A stretch of 36,589 nucleotides of DNA. It comes from Kofleriaceae bacterium (lineage in GTDB: Bacteria; Myxococcota_A; Polyangia; Haliangiales; Haliangiaceae). Made by a program: the position numbers and the translations under genes. The stretch spans positions 1-36,589 of the forward strand of contig DAIRFU010000003.1 of NCBI GenBank assembly GCA_036794935.1, read 5' to 3'. Of the stretch, positions 23,918 to 36,159 are shown piece after piece (the first letter of the stretch is position 1; each line of letters opens with the position of its first letter). Below the pieces are notes generated by a model. The model was not told the origin of the DNA. It ran no database searches and saw nothing but the letters and a program-made list of their open reading frames with translations.

Positions 23918-26767
<2,850 letters not shown>

Positions 26768-26817
26768 GGCCGAACGGGCGGGGATTTACCGGCACGTCTC
26801 CTGCTGAGGCGCCGGCC

Positions 26818-29061
26818 ATGCGGATCGTGCTCCTTGCGTTGCTCCTGGCGGCGTGTGAAGGACCTGCAGGCCCGCAGGGTGAGGATGGAACCGACGGCGC
26901 CGATGGCGCGGACGGCAGCCACGGCGATCCGGGGCCCACGGGCGAGCCCGGCACCGTACCGCCCGTGCCGTGGCTGGTCGCCGACCAGGTCCAGATCGCG
27001 GTCACGGATCTGACCGTCGATGGCAGCGGCGCGCACGTCGCGTTCACGCTGAAGGACAAGGACGGCAAGCCGCTCGATCGCACCGGCAACCTGACCGACG
27101 GCAAGGTCACCGTCAGCTTCATTCTCGCCCAGCTCGGCACCGCGAGCGACGGCAGCGCCGCGCAGTACACGGCCTACACCAGGCGCAGCGTCAACGCGAC
27201 GCCGCCGTATCCGACCGCCACCGCCACCCAGGCGACGACCGAGGGCACCGAGTCGCGCTTCGAGGTCGTCGACGTGACCCAGGGTAGCTACCGCTACGAC
27301 TTCGAGGCACCGACCACCGGCTACGACGCGACCAGGACCCAGAGCGTGCTGGCCGTCGCGTCGCGCACCCTCGACGGCGTGCAGGCCTGGGACCGCGACC
27401 TGTTCCACGTCGGCACGGTTCGCCACGAAGAGGTGACCGACACGAGCTGCGGCAGCTGCCACGGCTCGTTCGCCGCGCACGGTGGCCGGTACACGAAGCC
27501 CGAGCACTGCGTGCTGTGCCACACCGCGCAGAGCTCGGATCCGGAGAGCGGCAACACCGTCGACTTCAAGGTGATGATCCACAAGCTCCACCGCGGCGAG
27601 AACCTGCCGAGCTTCGTCGCGGACTCGAGCAAGCCCTACGCGATCATCGGCTACGGCAACTCCGTGCACGACTTCTCGACGGTCGGCTTCCCCGGTCCGT
27701 CGACGGACGTCGCGGTCAACATCCGGCGCTGCGAGACGTGCCACGACGGCGCCCAGCAGACGAACTGGTACGCGCGGCCGAGCACGGCCGCCTGCACGTC
27801 GTGCCACGACACGACGGTGTTCACCGCGAACCCGGCGCCGCCACTCGTCGCGCACCAGGGTGGTGTCGATCCGGCGCTCGTCAACGACGGCACGTGCATC
27901 GTGTGTCACGGGCAGACCGCGGGCCCGGCGCCCGTGCCGGCCGCGCACTACACGGGTCTGCTCGATCCGAGCACGGGCACGATGCGCGTCGACATCCAGT
28001 CGGTGACGAACACCGCACCCGGCCAGCTGCCGACCGTTCGCTTCAAGGTGACCGTCGACGGCGCGCCGCGCGATATCCAGGCGTCGCCGCTATCGGCACT
28101 GACCGCGACGATCGCCGGTCCGACGACCGACTTCCGCGAGTTCTGGCAGGCGCGCGTGCAGGGCTCGGGTGCGGTCGGCACGCTGACAGCGGTCGATGCC
28201 GCGGCCGGCATCTTCGACTACACGTTCCCCGCGGCGACGGTCGCGAAGCCGACGCCGTGCACGGAGTCGACGGCCGCCCGCGAGTGCAAGATTCCCGACG
28301 ACGCGACCGGTAGCTACCAGATCGCGTTCGAGGCGAGCTGGACCCCGGCCGGTCAGCAGCGCATCGTCGCGCCGCCGCCGATCGCCGCGTTCGCGGTGAC
28401 CGACACGACCGCCGTGCCTCGCCGCACGATCGTCGCCAACGCGAGCTGCAACGGCTGCCACGTCGACCTCCAGTTCCACGGCGGTGGCCGCAAGGACGTC
28501 CAGTACTGCGTGATGTGCCACAACCCCAGCAACGCGAACGACGAGCGCATCTCTCGGCTCGAGGGCTCGGCGGTGTTCGCCGAGAGCGTCGACCTCCGCG
28601 TGATGGCGCACAAGATCCACATGGGCGAGGAGCTGTCGCAGCCGTACATCCTCGGCGGCAACCCGGCGCCGAGCACGTCGAATCCGCTCGGCGCCCCGGA
28701 GGACTTCTCCGAGCTCCGCTACCCGCGCGCGCGTACGGCGTGCAACGCCTGCCACACCGGCACGACGTGGCAGCTGCCGATGGCGGCGTCGGCGAAGTAC
28801 CTGCCGAGCACGACCGTCGAGCTGACCTGCAGCGAGGATCCGAGCGCGGACAGCGATAGCTACTGCACCGGCGCGTTCTGGGCGATCACGAAGACGACCA
28901 AGATCGCGCCGGAGAGCGCGGTGTGCACGAGCTGCCACGATGCGCCGTACACCGCGGCGCACGCGCTGCTCAACACCACCACGGGTGGCGTCGAGGCGTG
29001 CACGACGTGCCACGGCCCCGGCAAGGAGCTCGACGTCTCGCGCTACCACGGCACCCCGTGA
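26818..29061 (+). CDS. Decaheme c-type cytochrome lipoprotein with MtrC/OmcA-like four-domain layout (beta domain, 5 hemes, beta domain with CX8C, 5 hemes)
   Basis: The start is taken at the ATG at 26818 (MRIVLLALLLAAC, lipobox), inside track ORF 26686..29061. The CXXCH motifs are CGSCH, CVLCH, CETCH, CTSCH and CIVCH, then a heme-free segment of about 150 aa containing CTESTAAREC, then CNGCH, CVMCH, CNACH, CTSCH and CTTCH. Confidence 0.85.
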   Translation: MRIVLLALLLAACEGPAGPQGEDGTDGADGADGSHGDPGPTGEPGTVPPVPWLVADQVQIAVTDLTVDGSGAHVAFTLKDKDGKPLDRTGNLTDGKVTVSFILAQLGTASDGSAAQYTAYTRRSVNATPPYPTATATQATTEGTESRFEVVDVTQGSYRYDFEAPTTGYDATRTQSVLAVASRTLDGVQAWDRDLFHVGTVRHEEVTDTSCGSCHGSFAAHGGRYTKPEHCVLCHTAQSSDPESGNTVDFKVMIHKLHRGENLPSFVADSSKPYAIIGYGNSVHDFSTVGFPGPSTDVAVNIRRCETCHDGAQQTNWYARPSTAACTSCHDTTVFTANPAPPLVAHQGGVDPALVNDGTCIVCHGQTAGPAPVPAAHYTGLLDPSTGTMRVDIQSVTNTAPGQLPTVRFKVTVDGAPRDIQASPLSALTATIAGPTTDFREFWQARVQGSGAVGTLTAVDAAAGIFDYTFPAATVAKPTPCTESTAARECKIPDDATGSYQIAFEASWTPAGQQRIVAPPPIAAFAVTDTTAVPRRTIVANASCNGCHVDLQFHGGGRKDVQYCVMCHNPSNANDERISRLEGSAVFAESVDLRVMAHKIHMGEELSQPYILGGNPAPSTSNPLGAPEDFSELRYPRARTACNACHTGTTWQLPMAASAKYLPSTTVELTCSEDPSADSDSYCTGAFWAITKTTKIAPESAVCTSCHDAPYTAAHALLNTTTGGVEACTTCHGPGKELDVSRYHGTP
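26860..26952 (+). repeat. Collagen-like Gly-X-Y tract (10 triplets) starting one residue (Glu) after the lipobox Cys of the decaheme cytochrome
   Basis: The tract reads GPA GPQ GED GTD GAD GAD GSH GDP GPT GEP G, read directly from codons 15-45 of the gene. Confidence 0.85.
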
Positions 29062-29064
29062 ACC

Positions 29065-30157
29065 GTGAGGGCAATGCTCGTCATGCTCGCGCTCACTGGC
29101 TGCTCCGAGGAGCGTCTGCTGTCCGGACCGTGCGATGGCTGCGTCGTGACGCTTCACGACCAGGGCATCCTCGATCCGGGGAGCGACGCGTTTCACGGGA
29201 CGCTGCTCGCTCGCACGAACTGGGGCTTCGCGCGCTGCGCGGAGTGCCATGGCGAGGACTTCAGCGGCGGCACGAGCGGCGTGTCGTGCGTGAGCTGTCA
29301 CCAGCAGGGGCCGACCGCGTGCGTGACGTGTCACCGCGACGAGTCGCCGTCGCACGCGGTGCACCGCGCGGCGAGCCTGACGTGCGCGGAGTGCCATCGC
29401 GTGCCCGAGCGCTGGGACGCACCGGGCCACATCGTCGACGACGCGCTCCCCGCCGAGGTCACGTTCGGTGCACTCGCCGCGGCGACGCTCGATCCGGACG
29501 ATCGCGAGGGACCACCGGTGTTCGACGGCGCTCGCTGCAGCAACGTCTATTGTCATGGCGCGGTCCTCCACGCCGGTGGTGGCAGCGACACGCAGCCGAC
29601 GTGGGACGCGACCGCGACCGGCACGTGCGGCAGCTGTCACGCGGCACCACCGCCGAGCCACGCGCGTAGCGACTGCGCGACCTGTCATCCGCAGAGCGCG
29701 CCGCACATCGACGGTGCATTGCAGATCGGCACGACGAACGACTGCTCGGGGTGCCACGGCAGCGCGGCATCGCCGGCCCCGCCGTTCGATCTCGAAGGCA
29801 ACCAGTTCACGACCGCGATCGGCGTCGGCGCGCATCAGGCCCACCTCCAGGCACCGTCGGGATTGCGTGGGCCCATTCCGTGCGAGACGTGCCACGCGGT
29901 GCCGGCAACCGTGACCGCGGTCGGCCACCTCGACGCGTCGCCCGCCGAGGTCAACCCGGAGCTCGGCTGGGATCGCGAGAGCCAGACCTGCACGACGTGG
30001 TGCCACGGCGTGGCGCGGCCGAGCTGGACGTCGCACGGCGAGGTCGTGTGTGGCTCGTGCCACGGCGCACCGCCAGCGGATGCGAACCACGACGCCCAGA
30101 TGACGATCGCGACGTGCGTGAGCTGCCACGTCGGGACCCACATGGACGGAGTGCTCG

Positions 30158-30168
<11 letters not shown>
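29065..30168 (+). CDS. 12-heme c-type cytochrome lipoprotein with an internally duplicated CxxxxCH...CXXCH-type module
   Basis: 367 aa with a lipobox (LALTGC). It has ten CXXCH motifs (CAECH x2, CVSCH x2, CVTCH, CGSCH x2, CATCH, CSGCH, CETCH), plus CSNVYCH (CX4CH) and CTTWCH (CX3CH). The start is the GTG at 29065 or the ATG at 29074. Confidence 0.85.
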
Positions 30169-30774
<606 letters not shown>

Positions 30775-30778
<4 letters not shown>

Positions 30779-31065
30779 GGCTGCGGCTCACGGCGAGCGT
30801 GGGACTTCACCTCTCGGCGGTGCTCACGTTGATCGCGCTCGCGCTGATGGTGTGGTCGGTGGTCGAGCCGACGCCGCTGCCGGTGATGGTCGCGATGACC
30901 GTCGGCCAGGCGCTCGGTACGACCGCGTTCGGCATCTTCGTCTGGGTCGTGTTCGCGGACCTCACGCGCCAGCGCGCCGAGCGCAAGTCGCTCGAGCGGA
31001 TCTCGCTCGTCGACATCGAGGTGCCGAAGCGGGGGCCCGCCGGCGAGCCGAAAGAGCACGCGTGA
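30775..31065 (+). CDS. Small 2-TM membrane protein
   Basis: This is the C-terminal part of track ORF 30223..31065. The ATG at 30775 overlaps the previous stop (ATGA). The 96-aa product begins MRLRLTASVGLHLSAVLTLIALALMVWSVV...TTAFGIFVWVVFADL and has a charged tail. Confidence 0.6.
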
Positions 31066-32231
31066 TGAAGCGCGCGCTCGCGGCGATGCTCGCGATCGCG
31101 GCGTCTCGAGGTGCCTCTCCGGCGGGCGCCGATCCGCTGCGCCTGCGCGCCGACGCGCTCGCGACCACGCAGTCGCCCGCGGGCCTGCTCGTGCTCGAGG
31201 CGGACGGCAAGGCGAGCGCGACCGCGAACGCGGAGGCGATCGTATGGACCGCGAACGACTCGGCCGACGTGCTCGTGATCGCGCTGCGCGCACGCACGAA
31301 GGACGGTCGCGTCGGCGGCCGCGTCGGCCGGTTCGTCGCCTCGCTCGGTGCGCTGCGTCCGGTGCACGTCGACGGGCTCGCCGGGCGCATCCGGCTCGGC
31401 AAGCGCTTCGACATCGAGGCGTACGGCGGCATGCCTGTGGTCGCGTTCTCCGAGGGTACGAGCGCGCGTGCGTGGGACTGGGTGCTCGGCGGTCGCGTCG
31501 CGCGCCGGCTCGGGGACTACGGCTCGGTCGGCGTCGCGATGCTCGAGCAGCGCGATCACGGGCAGCTGGTGACCCGCGAGCTCGGTGTCGATGGCGGCCT
31601 CGCGCTCGGCAAGCACCACGACGCCGAGGCGCGCGTCGCGTACGATCTCGCGAACCCGGGCCTCGCCGACGTCCATGGCAGCGTGATCCGCCGCAAGGGC
31701 ACGTTGCGCGCCGAGGCGTACGGCGGCTACCGCGCGGCGTCGCACCTGCTCCCGGCGACGTCGCTGTTCACCGTGCTCGGCGACACGCCGTCGGCGCGCG
31801 GCGGCGTGCTCGTCAGCAGCAAGGTCGCGCCCCGGCTCGAGCTGTCGAGCGATCTGGGCCTGCGCGGCGCCGCCGACGAGCTCGGCGCGATGATCGTCGT
31901 GCGTGCGCGGCTCGCGCTCGACGATACGTTCGCGAGCGCGCTCACCGGCGAGCTGCGCCGCGACGGCGTCGGTGACGACGCGTGGACCGGCGCGCGCGGT
32001 GCCGCTCGCATCGCGCTGCCGCACGAGCTCGTCGCGAGCACCGAGCTCGAGCTCGTCGTGCCCGATACCGATCGCGGCCGTGGTCGCGTGTGGCCGTGGG
32101 CACTCGCCGCGCTCGGCTGGCAACGCGGTCCGTGGCAAGCGGCGGTCGCGGGCGAGGCGTCGGCGTCGGCGGAGTACACGCGGCGGCTCGACGTGCTGTT
32201 CCAGCTGGGCCGTCAGTGGAGCACGCCGTGA
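31065..32231 (+). CDS. Putative outer-membrane beta-barrel protein (candidate porin of the cytochrome conduit)
   Basis: This is the C-terminal part of track ORF 30852..32231. The ATG at 31065 overlaps the previous TGA (TGATG). The 388-aa product has a signal peptide (MKRALAAMLAIAASRGASPAGA) and no Cys or heme motifs. It has many short amphipathic alternating segments (FDIEAYGG, WDWVLGGRVARRL, GSVGVAMLEQR, AEARVAYDL, LRAEAYGGYR) separated by Gly/Asp turns. Confidence 0.55.
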   Translation: MKRALAAMLAIAASRGASPAGADPLRLRADALATTQSPAGLLVLEADGKASATANAEAIVWTANDSADVLVIALRARTKDGRVGGRVGRFVASLGALRPVHVDGLAGRIRLGKRFDIEAYGGMPVVAFSEGTSARAWDWVLGGRVARRLGDYGSVGVAMLEQRDHGQLVTRELGVDGGLALGKHHDAEARVAYDLANPGLADVHGSVIRRKGTLRAEAYGGYRAASHLLPATSLFTVLGDTPSARGGVLVSSKVAPRLELSSDLGLRGAADELGAMIVVRARLALDDTFASALTGELRRDGVGDDAWTGARGAARIALPHELVASTELELVVPDTDRGRGRVWPWALAALGWQRGPWQAAVAGEASASAEYTRRLDVLFQLGRQWSTP

Positions 32232-33259
32232 CGAAGCGCCGCGTCGCAGTCGCGCTCGCGCTCGTCGGGCTCGCCGCGTGTGCGGGCGTGCTCGGTCTTC
32301 GCCCGCGGGAGCCGAGCCCGTTTCCGCATCGCAAGCACGTGCTGAACGGTGTTGCATGCACGACGTGCCACGTCGGCATCGACACCGCGAGCGGTGACGC
32401 GGAGCTGCACCTGCCCGACGAGGCGTCGTGCCTGTCGTGTCATGACAAGCCGCACGATCCGAAGCCGTGCTTTCAGTGCCACTCGCGGCCGACCGCGCGC
32501 GCCGAGCTGATCGAGGCCCGCGAACATCTGCGCTTCGATCACGCGCGCCACGTACCGCGCACGCACGGCAACTGCATGCGGTGCCACGTCGGCGTGGGCG
32601 AGGGCGACGACCGGCTGCGCCCGGCGATGGCGACCTGCTTCAAGTGCCACGACGGCGAGCGGGACATGCGCCGGTGCGACAGCTGCCACCGAAGCCTCGA
32701 GGCCGGCACCGACATGCCGGCGAGTCACCTCGCGCACGATGGTGACTGGCTGCGCGATCACGGTGCGCGCGCCGCGTCGTCGGCGGATCTCTGCCAGACC
32801 TGCCACACCGAGCGCTCGTGCGCGACCTGTCACGGCGTCACGGTCCCGGTGCTGCCGGCGACCCTGCGGTTCGCCGATCCGTTCGCCGCGAGCGTGCACC
32901 GCGCCGGCTTCGCGTCGCGCCACAGCCTCGAGGCGAAGGCCGATCCGGGCGCGTGTCAGACCTGCCATCAGCCCGATCGCTGCGCGGCGTGCCACGTCGA
33001 GAGGGGCGTCGCCGGTCTCGATCGCGCGAGTCCGCACCCGCCGGGCTGGGTCGGCGTGACCGAGAACCTGCACGGGCGCGAGGCGCGTCGCGATCCGGCG
33101 TCGTGCGCGAGCTGTCACGGCGGTGCCGGCGAGCAGCTCTGCGTGACATGTCACAAGGTCGGCGGCATCGGCGGCAGCCCGCACCCACCGGGCTGGTCGA
33201 GCAAGCGATCGCTCGGCGCGATGCCGTGTCGGCTGTGTCACACGCTGGGGTCGCGATGA
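32228..33259 (+). CDS. 13-heme c-type cytochrome lipoprotein (c7/c3-like and paired-CXXCH segments)
   Basis: This is the C-terminal part of track ORF 31982..33259. A GTG at 32228 overlaps the previous stop (GTGA), and a GTG at 32216 is an alternative start. The lipobox is LVGLAAC. There are thirteen CXXCH motifs, including FPHRKH...CTTCH, FDHARH...CMRCH and the closely paired CQTCHTERSCATCH and CQTCHQPDRCAACH. Confidence 0.85.
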   Translation: MTKRRVAVALALVGLAACAGVLGLRPREPSPFPHRKHVLNGVACTTCHVGIDTASGDAELHLPDEASCLSCHDKPHDPKPCFQCHSRPTARAELIEAREHLRFDHARHVPRTHGNCMRCHVGVGEGDDRLRPAMATCFKCHDGERDMRRCDSCHRSLEAGTDMPASHLAHDGDWLRDHGARAASSADLCQTCHTERSCATCHGVTVPVLPATLRFADPFAASVHRAGFASRHSLEAKADPGACQTCHQPDRCAACHVERGVAGLDRASPHPPGWVGVTENLHGREARRDPASCASCHGGAGEQLCVTCHKVGGIGGSPHPPGWSSKRSLGAMPCRLCHTLGSR

Positions 33260-34896
33260 CGAGGCGCCTCGGGCTCGTCGCGTTCGCGCTGATGCTGCTC
33301 GGGGCCATCGGCGGCTTCGTCGCGTGCGGCATGTCGGAGCGGCCGCGCGCGTCGGAGCACGTGCCGGTCGCATACCGCCAGGCGCGCCTCGCGATCGGTC
33401 ACGTCAAGCACGTCGGCAAGGTCGCGTGCGCGGACTGCCACGGGCAGGCGTTCGAGAAGCCGGCCGCCGAGCTGTGCACGAGCTGCCACGCGAAGACGTC
33501 GTCGCTGCACCACGACGATCCGACGACGACCGACACGCCACCCGCGTGCATCGACTGCCACGGCTACACCGACGCGACGGCCACGCCGTGGAACTGCATG
33601 CGCTGCCACGACGAGAAACGCGGCCGCCACGCGGCGGTCGGCGCGCACGCCGAGGAGGACTGCAGCACGTGTCACCAGCCGCACGGCGAGCCGGCGACGC
33701 GGGCGCAAGGCTGCGAGAGCTGTCACCGCGGCCGCGAGACCACGCACGCGGGCCTGCACGGCTGCCTCGACTGCCACGCGATGCACGAGAGCAAGCTGCC
33801 GAACCTCGCCGGCCGCGAGGGCGGGGCGGCGGCCACCGGCTGCGAGCGCTGCCACGCGCAGCAGAAGGGCACGCTGCACGTCGACGCCCGCGCGCTATCG
33901 ACGGGCCACGACGCGTGCACGAGCTGCCACCAGCCGCATGACTTCGAGCCGCGCGCGTGCCTCGATTGCCACCGCGATCGCCCCGAGGGCAAGCAGCTGA
34001 TCGCGCCGGCCAGGCACCAGTGCGCGAGCTGCCACGACCAGCACGACATCGCCGAGCCGCGCGCGTGCGCGACGTGTCACCGCGACGAGGCGCAAGCGAT
34101 CGAGCACCCGGCCACGCCGCAGGGCGCGTGCATCGGCTGTCACCGCCCGCACCAGCCGCAGGCCGCGTGCGAGTCGTGCCACGCGCAGATCCCGCGCCAC
34201 TCCGCAGAGGCCCGGTGCCTCGACTGCCACGTGCCGCACGCCGGCAAGCCGAAGCCGAACGCCGCGTTCTGTGGCGCCTGCCATGCCGACAACGCCGCGC
34301 GCTCGGCGGGTCACGGCGAGTGCACCACGTGCCACGAGAACGCGGCGCACACGCCGAGCAAGCAGACACCCGCGTGCGCGACCTGCCACACCGACAAGGC
34401 GCGCGACATCGGCAAGCATGCACGCTGCGCGAGCTGCCACGCCGACGTGCACGCACCGGCCGCGCAGCCGCCCGCCTGCGCGACATGCCACGAGCGACAG
34501 GCGAGCTCGGTGCCCGCGGGCCACGCCGACTGCGCGAGCTGCCACACCCCGCACGCGCCGGGCACGACCCCGGCGTGCGCGACGTGCCACGCGAGCGAGG
34601 CGAAGACCCGCCACGGTGCGCTCGGCTGCGCGACCTGCCACCGCCCGCATGGCCCGAACGGCATCGCGAAGCCGCCGTCGTGCGTGACGTGTCACGTCGC
34701 GCGGACCGGACCGGCACCTGGTCCGCCGCCCCGGAAGCTCCACGCGGCGAAGGGGCACGCCGACTGCGCCACGTGCCACGTCTCGCACGAAGCCCGGCCG
34801 CGCGACGACCGCGCGAGCTGCCTCGCGTGCCACCAGGACCAGGTCCGCCACGAGCCGGCCGCCGCTCGCTGCGCGACCTGCCACCCGTTCCGTTAA
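33256..34896 (+). CDS. 27-heme c-type cytochrome lipoprotein built from tandem diheme units
   Basis: This is the C-terminal part of track ORF 32818..34896. The ATG at 33256 overlaps the previous stop (ATGA). The 546-aa product has a signal/lipobox (LLGAIGGFVAC). I counted 27 CXXCH motifs by hand, about one per 20 residues. Confidence 0.88.
   Translation: MTRRLGLVAFALMLLGAIGGFVACGMSERPRASEHVPVAYRQARLAIGHVKHVGKVACADCHGQAFEKPAAELCTSCHAKTSSLHHDDPTTTDTPPACIDCHGYTDATATPWNCMRCHDEKRGRHAAVGAHAEEDCSTCHQPHGEPATRAQGCESCHRGRETTHAGLHGCLDCHAMHESKLPNLAGREGGAAATGCERCHAQQKGTLHVDARALSTGHDACTSCHQPHDFEPRACLDCHRDRPEGKQLIAPARHQCASCHDQHDIAEPRACATCHRDEAQAIEHPATPQGACIGCHRPHQPQAACESCHAQIPRHSAEARCLDCHVPHAGKPKPNAAFCGACHADNAARSAGHGECTTCHENAAHTPSKQTPACATCHTDKARDIGKHARCASCHADVHAPAAQPPACATCHERQASSVPAGHADCASCHTPHAPGTTPACATCHASEAKTRHGALGCATCHRPHGPNGIAKPPSCVTCHVARTGPAPGPPPRKLHAAKGHADCATCHVSHEARPRDDRASCLACHQDQVRHEPAAARCATCHPFR
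33427..34884 (+). repeat. Protein-level tandem array of CXXCH-xxH-(6-10 aa)-CXXCH-(7-12 aa incl. His) units
   Basis: Example units are CSTCHQPHGEPATRAQGCESCHRGRETTHAGLHG, CTSCHQPHDFEPRACLDCHRDRPEGKQLIAPARHQ, CASCHDQHDIAEPRACATCHRDEAQAIEHP, CASCHTPHAPGTTPACATCHASEAKTRHGALG and CATCHVSHEARPRDDRASCLACHQDQVRHEP. At the DNA level TGCGCGAC(C/G/A)TGCCAC recurs. Confidence 0.8.
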
Positions 34897-35004
34897 GCAA
34901 CGCGTGCCGGCAACTGGAGCTGCCGGTCCGCGATTTGCCACGTGGGTTTTCGCACCCCAAGCGGCGCTACGCGCTGGCGCCCGCGTTGCAGTTGCCGCGA
35001 GCCG

Positions 35005-36159
35005 ATGCGGACGTGGTGCCTGGTGATAGCGATGATGGCCGGCTGTGCCTTCGCCGGCGGTGATGCGAACGACGAGTCGTTCGTCGTCGGTGGTCAGCCC
35101 GAGAGCGGCTACCCGCCGGTCGGCTACCTCCACAACACGCTCTACCCCGACTCCAGGACGTGGTGCGGCGTCACGCTGATCGCGCCGACCGTCGTGATCA
35201 CCGCGTCGCACTGCGTGGATGGGGTCGCGGCGGCAAACCTCGAGGTCGGCTTCGGCCTGGTCGACAGCTCGCCGCTCGTCGCGGTCGCCGCGGTCCACAT
35301 GCACCCGAGCTACGTCTACCGGCAGGAGGGCGACTTCCTGCCGTGGGACGACGTCGCGGTGCTCGAGCTCGCCCAGGCCGTCACGGCCGTCCCGCCGGCG
35401 ACGCTCGCCCGCGCGCAGACCGGTGGCTGCACCGCGCGCTACGTCGGCTACGGCCGCAACGTGCCCGGCGACGGCCACGTGACCGAGGGCTACGACGGCG
35501 AGCGGCGCAGCGCCACGATCTGCATCGACGCCGAGAACCCGCACGAGCTCTACGTCCACGGCGACGACGGCGGCCTGTGCTGGGGCGACAGCGGCGGCCC
35601 GCTGCTCGCCGATGGCACCACGCACGTGTTCGGCGTGCTGTCGCGCCACGCGCCGCGCATCGACTCGCACTACTCGTGCGAGACGGGCAACCGGATGATC
35701 TTCACGGCCGCCGCGACCTATCGCGACTTCATCACGCAGTGGGCGCCCGACGCGTTCGAGGCCGAGCCCGCGGCGACCGCGAGCGTGGGCTGGTGCAACG
35801 TGCAGTGGCCCGAGACGCTGGCCGCCCAGCCGTACGCGACGACCGAGCCGATCTACGGCCGCGTGTGGGCCGAGGGCGTGACGCCCGGCCGTGGCCAGGG
35901 CGCGGGCGTGACCGCGGAGGTCGGCTTCGGCCCGGCCGACTCGGCGCCCGACACCGCCGCCGGCTGGATCTGGTACGCCGCGCACTACAACGTCGACGTC
36001 GACGGTCTCGCCGCCGGCGATCTCGCGAACGACGAGTATATGGGGACCCTGTTCCCCTATGCCGCCGGCACGTACTCGCTCGCGTACCGGTTCTCGGCCG
36101 ACGGCGGCCAGACGTGGAAGACCTGCAGCAGCGGCTCGAAGCTGACCGTCGCGCCGTGA
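35005..36159 (+). CDS. Trypsin-like (S1) serine protease lipoprotein with an uncharacterised C-terminal domain of about 130 aa
   Basis: The start is taken at the ATG at 35005 (MRTWCLVIAMMAGC, lipobox), inside track ORF 34942..36159. S1 features are present: VVGG, the catalytic triad contexts TASHC, DDVAVLEL and GDSGGPL. The C-terminal domain reads WCNVQWPETL...IYGRVWAEGVT...YSLAYRFSADGGQTWKTC. Confidence 0.88.
   Translation: MRTWCLVIAMMAGCAFAGGDANDESFVVGGQPESGYPPVGYLHNTLYPDSRTWCGVTLIAPTVVITASHCVDGVAAANLEVGFGLVDSSPLVAVAAVHMHPSYVYRQEGDFLPWDDVAVLELAQAVTAVPPATLARAQTGGCTARYVGYGRNVPGDGHVTEGYDGERRSATICIDAENPHELYVHGDDGGLCWGDSGGPLLADGTTHVFGVLSRHAPRIDSHYSCETGNRMIFTAAATYRDFITQWAPDAFEAEPAATASVGWCNVQWPETLAAQPYATTEPIYGRVWAEGVTPGRGQGAGVTAEVGFGPADSAPDTAAGWIWYAAHYNVDVDGLAAGDLANDEYMGTLFPYAAGTYSLAYRFSADGGQTWKTCSSGSKLTVAP

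Follow-up and report, generated by a model that had tools for sequence, protein, structure and literature searches.

A 27-haem cytochrome built of diheme repeats as a candidate periplasmic electron wire of uncultured myxobacteria

Introduction

A 36,589-nucleotide stretch of DNA from a Kofleriaceae bacterium (assembly GCA_036794935.1, contig DAIRFU010000003.1, positions 1 to 36,589), called the window below, contains a gene for a cytochrome with 27 haem-binding motifs in 546 amino acids (aa), here named h27. The question raised by this gene is where in the cell envelope such a protein resides and how far it could carry electrons. To our knowledge, diffusing shuttles (PpcA, STC, FccA) are the only well-described way for electrons to cross the ~20 nm periplasm. 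The prediction of periplasm-spanning cytochromes dates back to 2017 (PCC3; PMC5566968, 10.1101/2023.01.26.525709), none is known to have been demonstrated, and our literature searches returned nothing specific on myxobacterial extracellular electron transfer (EET) or on an experimentally shown periplasm-spanning cytochrome. The analysis presented here points, with evenly balanced confidence, to h27 as a membrane-tethered, peptide-minimised periplasmic electron wire in a myxobacterial porin-cytochrome EET system, a location which would follow from its anchors, its haem number and its neighbouring genes.

Results

The h27 gene and its peptide load

33256 to 34896, forward strand: coding sequence of h27, a 27-haem cytochrome of 546 aa plus stop codon (translation, motif count, homologues)
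33256 to 33327, forward strand: signal peptide and lipobox MTRRLGLVAFALMLLGAIGGFVAC, with Cys24 as the predicted lipidated residue (sequence pattern)
33352 to 33660, forward strand: N-terminal c3/c7-like module, aa 33–135, haems 1–4 (Pfam Cytochrom_CIII match at residues 33–118)
33661 to 34893, forward strand: array of 11.5 diheme units, haems 5–27, 411 aa, with the C-terminus CxxCHPFR
34375 to 34476, forward strand: optional diheme unit, haems 18–19, aa 374–407 (in 45% of the family, together with His388 and His399)

The recount of CXXCH motifs in the translated open reading frame (ORF) gave exactly 27, separated by spacers of 8–23 residues, which agrees with an earlier note on this DNA that had reported the same count and spacer range in 546 aa. 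The motifs account for 54 of the 55 cysteines, the remaining one being Cys24 in the lipobox 'FVAC', while 32 of the 59 histidines lie outside the motifs. When h27 was shuffled with its composition kept, the mean number of CXXCH motifs was 0.58 and the maximum was 5. The GC content at third codon positions (GC3) of the h27 frame is 0.87, and CXXCH is absent from those non-cytochrome ORFs of the window that have coding-like GC3. The ATG codon at 33256 shares bases with the stop codon (ATGA) of the 13-haem gene that precedes it, and the signal peptide starting from this codon resembles the N-termini of homologous proteins. The h27 gene and its count of 27 motifs are real.

Mature h27, with 523 aa and 55.3 kDa, contains 2.05 kDa or 19.4 aa of peptide per haem; the corresponding value is 20.2 aa for the whole protein and 17.9 aa for its repeat array. 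Peptide-minimised electron-transfer cytochromes have been defined as those with less than 5 kDa per haem, and an 86-haem cytochrome has 2.86 kDa per haem (PMC7096707), while the PCC3 cytochromes have 22–39 aa per haem (PMC5566968). The peptide load of h27, which is below that of the PCC3 cytochromes and of the 86-haem example described, makes it of interest for the design of bio-electronic wires. This low load, together with the diheme array, supports the view of the earlier note that h27 is an extended, peptide-poor chain of haems rather than an enzyme.

A diheme repeat with one conserved extra histidine per haem

The N-terminal module of h27 carries the conserved motifs VPxxW/Y and G-H49-x-x-H52, in which both H49 and H52 are invariant. 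Its layout, H-x-x-H-x5-CxxCH, is one that we take to resemble cytochrome c7. In the following array, motifs 5 to 26 alternate without exception between type A units, CxxCH-x-(P)-H, and type B units, CxxCH-x6-18-H-x2-7, the histidine of the latter being placed 2–8 residues ahead of the next motif. The diheme units are 34, 51, 35, 36, 29, 35, 35, 35, 32, 46, and 35 aa long. Alignment of the spacers alone gave a similarity of 0.62 between units of the same parity versus 0.14 between units of opposite parity; by lag, the similarity was 0.72–0.79 at lags 2, 4, and 8, and 0.12 at lag 3. The permutation of unit order supported the diheme period with p=0.0004. The high same-parity similarity, the low value at lag 3 and the permutation result show that the repeat is diheme and not triheme. 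The earlier proposal of a diheme tandem repeat is borne out both by this significant periodicity and by the strict A/B alternation over haems 5–26.

The conservation of haem sites, histidines and methionines was followed in a family alignment of 112 members (A1). The data showed that 25 haem sites are kept in at least 97% of the sequences, while haems 18–19 are present in 45%. In a subfamily of ~45 sequences that appear to have 24 haems, site 26 (aa 522–526) reads CX3CH (CTGSCH, CTGTCH, and similar), so that a simple CXXCH count comes out one haem low and the family has either 25 or 27 sites. In parallel, 25 of the histidines outside the motifs are kept in at least 96% of the 112 sequences, and His388 and His399 accompany the optional haem pair, which together gives 27 family-conserved extra histidines, one per haem. 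No conserved methionine was found in this alignment, as none of the five methionines of h27 is kept in more than 24% of the family. Because the 27 extra histidines are conserved and methionine is not, all haems of h27 are probably bis-His ligated, as the earlier note had expected. At the C-terminus, F545 is invariant throughout the 112 sequences, and P544 among the 14 that are closest to h27. Residues other than Cys and His had conservation values of 0.40, 0.38 and 0.43 in the N-terminal, middle and C-terminal parts, respectively; this weakly positive sign of conserved ends was not used.

Insertions and deletions of haem sites within the family affect adjacent pairs only (18–19, 21–22, 13–14). 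With two distal ligands in each diheme unit and changes occurring in pairs, a unit could be gained or lost while the others stay intact. The paired changes would imply that the modules are ligated locally, as a linear chain predicts. At the DNA level, a 51-bp sequence repeated twice in tandem at 34344–34446 (77% matches; Tandem Repeats Finder) spans haem units 17–19, and the position of this repeat in the region of diheme gain and loss suggests expansion by unit duplication. The AlphaFold2 (AF2) model of h27, which is haem-free, had a predicted local distance difference test (pLDDT) score of 81.7 and a predicted template modelling (pTM) score of 0.47. The Foldseek search of the Protein Data Bank (PDB) with this model gave no match at E≤10, haem-free, coil-rich models being unsuited to such a search.

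The h27 family

As judged by similarity searches, h27 belongs to a large unnamed family of uncultured myxobacteria, represented by metagenome-assembled genomes (MAGs) of Kofleriaceae, Haliangiales and Polyangiaceae. A word-indexed search returned more than 1300 proteins at E≤1e-3, the best of them 71% identical to h27; almost all are annotated as 'hypothetical protein' or with generic names, and they come from Kofleriaceae and Polyangiaceae MAGs. An exhaustive search of 1.84 billion cluster representatives gave 150 clusters at E≤1e-30. The genome loci, found in a scan seeded with 14 close sequences, came solely from MAGs labelled Kofleriaceae, Haliangiales, Myxococcales or 'Deltaproteobacteria', the best relatives being from Kofleriaceae MAGs with 70% identity; the patterns built on these 14 sequences are narrow, and the absence from isolate genomes is suggestive at most. 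In NCBIfam, no model reached its cut-off for h27. Relatives with 33–34, 57, and 73 haems also exist, the two longest of which (P0351 and P0317) have 20–21 aa per haem.

Two alternative membrane anchors

The N-terminus of h27 has the form MTRR-LGLVAFALMLLGAIGG-FVAC, in which the phenylalanine at position -3 is atypical for the lipobox consensus [LVI][ASTVI][GAS]C, while the nearest homologues carry either the same or a canonical lipobox. The predicted lipidation of Cys24 in 'FVAC', together with the lipoboxes of the closest homologues, makes h27 a probable lipoprotein, as assigned in the earlier note. Among the N-termini of 120 homologues, 43 contained a lipobox, 59 contained an uncharged segment of 19–26 residues and no lipobox, and 18 were ambiguous. 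The N-termini resembling transmembrane (TM) helices have no usable cysteine and are often followed by WWPR or LWPR. Both kinds of N-terminus are followed, ~12 residues past the anchor, by the VPxxW..GHxxH motif, which is present in all of the 120 homologues. The uncharged segment of 19–26 residues is predicted to be a membrane anchor and not a cleaved signal. For an uncleaved N-terminal helix, as predicted for about half of the homologues, the inner membrane is the only possible place, and the presence of such TM-like anchors in half of the family argues against a surface-exposed, distal h27. In M. xanthus lipoproteins, lysine at position +2 confers retention in the inner membrane, and alanine at position +7 is an export signal (PMC3222651). 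The mature N-terminus of h27, CGMSERP, contains neither of the two.

The gene cluster

26815 to 29061, forward strand: OmcA/MtrC-family decaheme lipoprotein, 748 aa (TIGR03507, 373 bits, cut-off 209; Mtrc-MtrF_II-IV_dom, 1.4e-51)
29065 to 30168, forward strand: 10-haem lipoprotein with a CxxxxCH/CxxCH domain (TIGR01904, 49 bits, cut-off 27; lipobox conserved)
30158 to 30778, forward strand: NapC/NirT membrane tetraheme cytochrome with three CXXCH motifs and a conserved CX4CH (Pfam Cytochrom_NNT, 42 bits)
30775 to 31065, forward strand: 96-aa protein with two hydrophobic helices and no family (sequence)
31065 to 32231, forward strand: 388-aa predicted outer-membrane beta-barrel with a signal peptidase I-type signal peptide (AF2, Foldseek)
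32228 to 33259, forward strand: h13, a 13-haem lipoprotein with a GTG start (Pfam Cytochrome_C7)

Judged by its predicted products, the cluster that ends with h27 is a porin-cytochrome EET cluster. The reading frames from the NapC/NirT gene through those of the 96-aa protein, the barrel and h13 to that of h27 overlap at each junction (ATGA, TGATG, GTGA, ATGA). The NapC/NirT cytochrome is presumed to be the quinol dehydrogenase; its fourth haem site has the form CX4CH (CASEGCH), which was found in 41 of 41 homologues. The NapC homologue is always accompanied by the translationally coupled protein of ~96 aa with two helices. The 388-aa barrel had no Pfam or NCBIfam match. Its AF2 model is all-beta, with ~22 strands and a pLDDT of 69, and Foldseek matched it with generic outer-membrane barrels only, e.g., FimD, OmpU, and VDAC. 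The lipobox of h13, L-A-A-C-A-G-V-L-G, is kept in ~50 loci, and in every locus examined h13 is a lipoprotein. In the OmcA/MtrC-like decaheme, the lipidated cysteine is directly followed by 11 collagen-like Gly-X-Y triplets (~26854–26955), CEGPAGPQGEDGTDGADGADGSHGDPGPTGEPGT, and the CEGPxGPxGP start of this stretch is kept in ~20 homologous loci. A ~10 nm trimeric stalk made of these triplets could hold the decaheme away from the membrane.

The proteins of the window were searched by tblastn against 75 fetched loci. The full seven-gene cluster was found in ~30 of the 75 loci, and the triad of barrel, h13, and h27 in ~45. Two distant Polyangiaceae loci (L002 and L004) keep the triad, with the genes of NapC and the small protein nearby in another orientation. 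A further Polyangiaceae locus (L003, 8770–15912) has two long cytochromes of the h27 family. One of them (555 aa) lies beside a 461-aa protein without a family and a 344-aa h13 homologue, while the second stands alone, divergent from the genes of NapC and a small TM protein; in the triad of this locus (461, 344, and 555 aa), the barrel-like gene had no tblastn match to the barrel of the window. The identity across loci was 43–50% for h27 versus 59–77% for h13, NapC, and the barrel, which makes h27 the fastest-evolving protein of the cluster. The earlier note had called h27 the last and largest cytochrome; it is the last, and it is the largest by haem count, while by length the MtrC-like protein with its 748 aa exceeds it.

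Directly downstream of h27, a trypsin-like serine protease is encoded at 34942–36159 on the forward strand. It was absent from all of the 70+ related loci, so that it is probably outside the system, and for the same reason OmcZ-style processing of h27 by this protease was rejected. On the other side, divergent from the cytochrome cluster, the reverse strand at 23918–26767 encodes an Hsp70-like protein of 949 aa whose C-terminal domain is DUF3731 ('DnaK-related'). The remaining genes of the window encode unrelated regulators and housekeeping proteins.

Comparison with known multihaem cytochromes

The h27 protein passes the Pfam thresholds of three class III families, Cytochrom_c3_2 (61.2 bits vs. 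25), Cytochrome_C7 (60.2 vs. 24.8), and Cytochrom_CIII (54.0 vs. 22.9), and by these profiles it is a member of the class III multihaem cytochrome c superfamily. In the single-sequence PDB search, the closest solved structure was a nine-haem cytochrome c (1e-6), and none was close. The family profile matched Hmc, MtrA, and GSU1996 with 58–73 bits (58 for 3OV0), which is a generic likeness, while 3OV0 (GSU1996) was absent from the single-sequence search with h27 at E≤1.

The Geobacter c7 polymers, which are the dodecaheme GSU1996 (3OV0) and GSU2210 with 27 haems, are, similarly to h27, peptide-minimised class III cytochromes made of tandem repeats and proposed as 'nanowires', and GSU2210 even shares its haem count with h27. 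These polymers consist of triheme c7 domains of ~70–80 aa, in each of which one haem is His-Met ligated. In contrast, h27 has a period of two rather than three, units of ~35 aa, and no conserved methionine, and it had no match to TIGR04257 (nanowire_3heme) in the NCBIfam search. On these grounds membership of h27 among the c7 polymers was rejected. The period, the missing TIGR04257 match and the generic likeness to 3OV0 agree with the earlier suggestion that the repeat is distinct from that of the c7 polymers and may be independent of it.

The system that appears conceptually closest to h27 is the periplasmic cytochrome of PCC3, known from iron-oxidising Proteobacteria such as Sideroxydans lithotrophicus ES-1 and Leptothrix cholodnii (PMC5566968, Hoover et al. 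2023), which is also long, of low complexity, built of repeats, and uncharacterised. In both cases the neighbouring genes encode a barrel of the outer membrane and another large cytochrome, and both proteins are predicted to be wires of periplasmic length. However, the PCC3 repeat has 59–66 aa and three haems, or 26–27 aa per haem (PMC5566968), while that of h27 has ~35 aa and two haems, or 17.9 aa per haem in the array. The gene neighbourhoods are also different, because PCC3 clusters encode a ~300-aa putative di-haem-b inner-membrane protein with five TM segments and two WX3HX13H motifs, and porins with up to 42 predicted transmembrane regions (PMC5566968), while the h27 cluster has instead the NapC/NirT cytochrome, the 96-aa protein with two TM segments, the 388-aa barrel of ~22 strands, and the MtrC/OmcA homologue. 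No protein with five TM segments was found in the gene tables of the related loci examined. The hosts are Myxococcota for h27 and Proteobacteria for PCC3; there was no proteobacterial locus among the close matches of the h27 family, and h27 was compared with PCC3 by the described features of the latter.

The h27 system resembles MtrCAB and the Geobacter Pcc systems in that an elongated chain of bis-His haems would pass electrons by way of a barrel in the outer membrane to a cytochrome at the surface. As in MtrCAB-type systems, a true member of the OmcA/MtrC family and a CymA-like NapC/NirT protein are encoded in the cluster. Membership of h27 itself in the MtrA/DmsE family was rejected, since its TIGR03508 score of 34.5 bits is far below the cut-off of 192.2. 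Compared to MtrA, h27 carries 2.7-fold more haems with ~60% of the residues for each, it is predicted to be tethered to a membrane while MtrA is soluble, and the accompanying barrel bears no recognisable likeness to MtrB. The 'doubled CXXCH' domain of Paired_CXXCH_1 (PF09699) and TIGR01905 is also a two-haem unit, of the kind CxxCH-x2-H ... CxxCH. Paired_CXXCH_1 scored 42 bits on h27 versus a threshold of 20.6, with only one stretch passing by itself (169–204, with a 21-residue spacer); in the other units, the spacers from A to B have 8–13 residues, which is short for this 41-aa model. Most homologues carry a precomputed Paired_CXXCH_1 match, while TIGR01905 was not reported for h27.

Discussion

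The haem number of the family provides an estimate of its reach. From solved structures, Edwards et al. calculated that ~27 haems are needed to cross a periplasm of ~200 Å (PMC7096707), and 27 haems of h27 arranged in one linear chain would extend over ~200 Å, at ~7.4 Å per haem in the published fit for peptide-minimised cytochromes. In PCC3 systems, the predicted periplasmic cytochromes have 21–27 haems, while the extracellular ones have 10–85 (PMC5566968; 10.1101/2023.01.26.525709). The fact that the h27 family is pinned at 25 or 27 haems, which matches the ~27 for a ~200 Å periplasm, favours a periplasmic span. The presence in the cluster of a surface cytochrome of the OmcA/MtrC type likewise favours a tethered, periplasmic h27.

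In the mechanism that we propose, a lipid would hold the N-terminus of h27 at the membrane, while about half of the homologues would use a TM helix for this purpose. The quinol dehydrogenase NapC/NirT would feed electrons into one end of h27, and from its other end they would reach the outer-membrane module, which would consist of the 22-strand barrel and the 13-haem lipoprotein, and then the MtrC/OmcA-like decaheme and the 10-haem lipoprotein as the surface cytochromes. Such a system would hard-wire the inner to the outer membrane in place of diffusing shuttles. The flow may serve either metal reduction or electron uptake. A more specific proposal, which we offer tentatively, is that h27 acts as a ruler of fixed length, in which a single polypeptide with a TM or lipid tether and 25 or 27 bis-His haems would join the inner-membrane quinol dehydrogenase to the outer-membrane module across the periplasm.

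Several points weigh against placing h27 in the periplasm as a wire of this length. The order of barrel, h13, and h27 mirrors what we take to be the order of Geobacter ombB-omaB-omcB, where the last gene presumably encodes an extracellular lipoprotein. The relatives with 33–73 haems mean that the diheme module is not confined to one length, and one of them, with 34 haems, is encoded on a Polyangiaceae contig (L076, 2125–8418) in a different cluster that has no adjacent barrel. (The next genes of that cluster encode a NapC-like multihaem protein of 548 aa and a multihaem protein of 812 aa, the latter with a weak match to Ni_hydr_CYTB, a cytochrome b.) The fast evolution of h27 is typical also of exposed proteins. 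The linearity and the length of h27 are extrapolated rather than measured from coordinates, and the 120 homologues were divided between TM helices and cleaved signals by the length of the hydrophobic run alone. Finally, without lysine at position +2, h27 may default to the outer membrane, in which case its anchored end may differ from that of the TM-anchored homologues.

Part of this evidence would suit an opposite arrangement, in which h27 is a distal, surface-exposed lipoprotein wire reaching ~20 nm outward to minerals, with h13 inside or below the barrel; we consider it unlikely. The models for such an arrangement are Geobacter OmcB and the extracellular PCC3 cytochrome. It would agree with the lipobox of h27 and its closest relatives, with the place of h27 behind the barrel and h13 at the end of the cluster, which we take to be as in ombB-omaB-omcB, with the status of h27 as the least conserved protein of the cluster, and with the existence of relatives of 33–73 haems. 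The absence of the +2 lysine signal for inner-membrane retention also fits it (PMC3222651). The absence of the +7 alanine export signal speaks against it. However, about half of the family has TM-like anchors and no lipobox, and would need a separate secretion route to reach the surface. The haem number is fixed at 25 or 27, as opposed to 10–85 in predicted extracellular PCC3 cytochromes (PMC5566968; 10.1101/2023.01.26.525709), and the cluster already provides a surface decaheme of the OmcA/MtrC type with a putative collagen-like stalk and a second lipoprotein with 10 haems. The suggestion of the earlier note that h27 could be the distal, surface-exposed element is disfavoured by the TM-like anchors in 59 of the 120 homologues, the fixed haem number and the decaheme.

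It is less probable still that h27 serves mainly as a periplasmic store, a 27-electron capacitor that buffers respiration without external acceptors, as has been proposed for Geobacter GSU1996. The many bis-His haems, which are of the low-potential type, would be suitable for this purpose, membrane tethering is compatible with it, and electron storage has been discussed as a role of long cytochromes (PMC7096707; 10.1101/2024.01.05.574438). On the other hand, a store leaves unexplained the constant haem number, the invariant termini (VPxxW..GHxxH and CxxCHPFR), and the tight translational coupling to the barrel and its cytochrome, and storage and bridging may also coexist. In a window of ~71% GC with long spurious ORFs in all six frames, one could suspect that the dense motifs stem from a GC-rich ORF that is non-coding or read in the wrong frame, and that the protein is not made, but this is ruled out by the conservation pattern, in which Cys and His columns are invariant among >1300 homologues while other positions vary, as well as by the GC3 of 0.87, the 27 motifs versus 0.58 expected from shuffling, and the kept synteny of the cluster.

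If h27 is taken as a periplasmic wire, it would belong to a kind already known, that of long multihaem wires built of repeats in porin-cytochrome clusters, while its diheme module differs from that of PCC3 and is denser. The family offers a compact candidate, with ~55 kDa of peptide for 27 haems, local diheme modules, and two alternative anchors, and its fixed length of 25 or 27 haems, the alternative anchors and the small size make the predicted periplasm-spanning wire directly testable. The Kofleriaceae, Haliangiales, and Polyangiaceae are usually regarded as aerobic predators. With the present data, complete porin-cytochrome clusters, a true OmcA/MtrC homologue included, are extended to uncultured members of these groups from soil and sediment. 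If h27 acts as a ruler of fixed length, diffusing periplasmic shuttles would not be needed in these bacteria, the haem count would be tuned to the width of the periplasm in diheme steps, and h27, with an apoprotein of 55 kDa, would be the first tractable, compact test case for the prediction of periplasm-spanning cytochromes.

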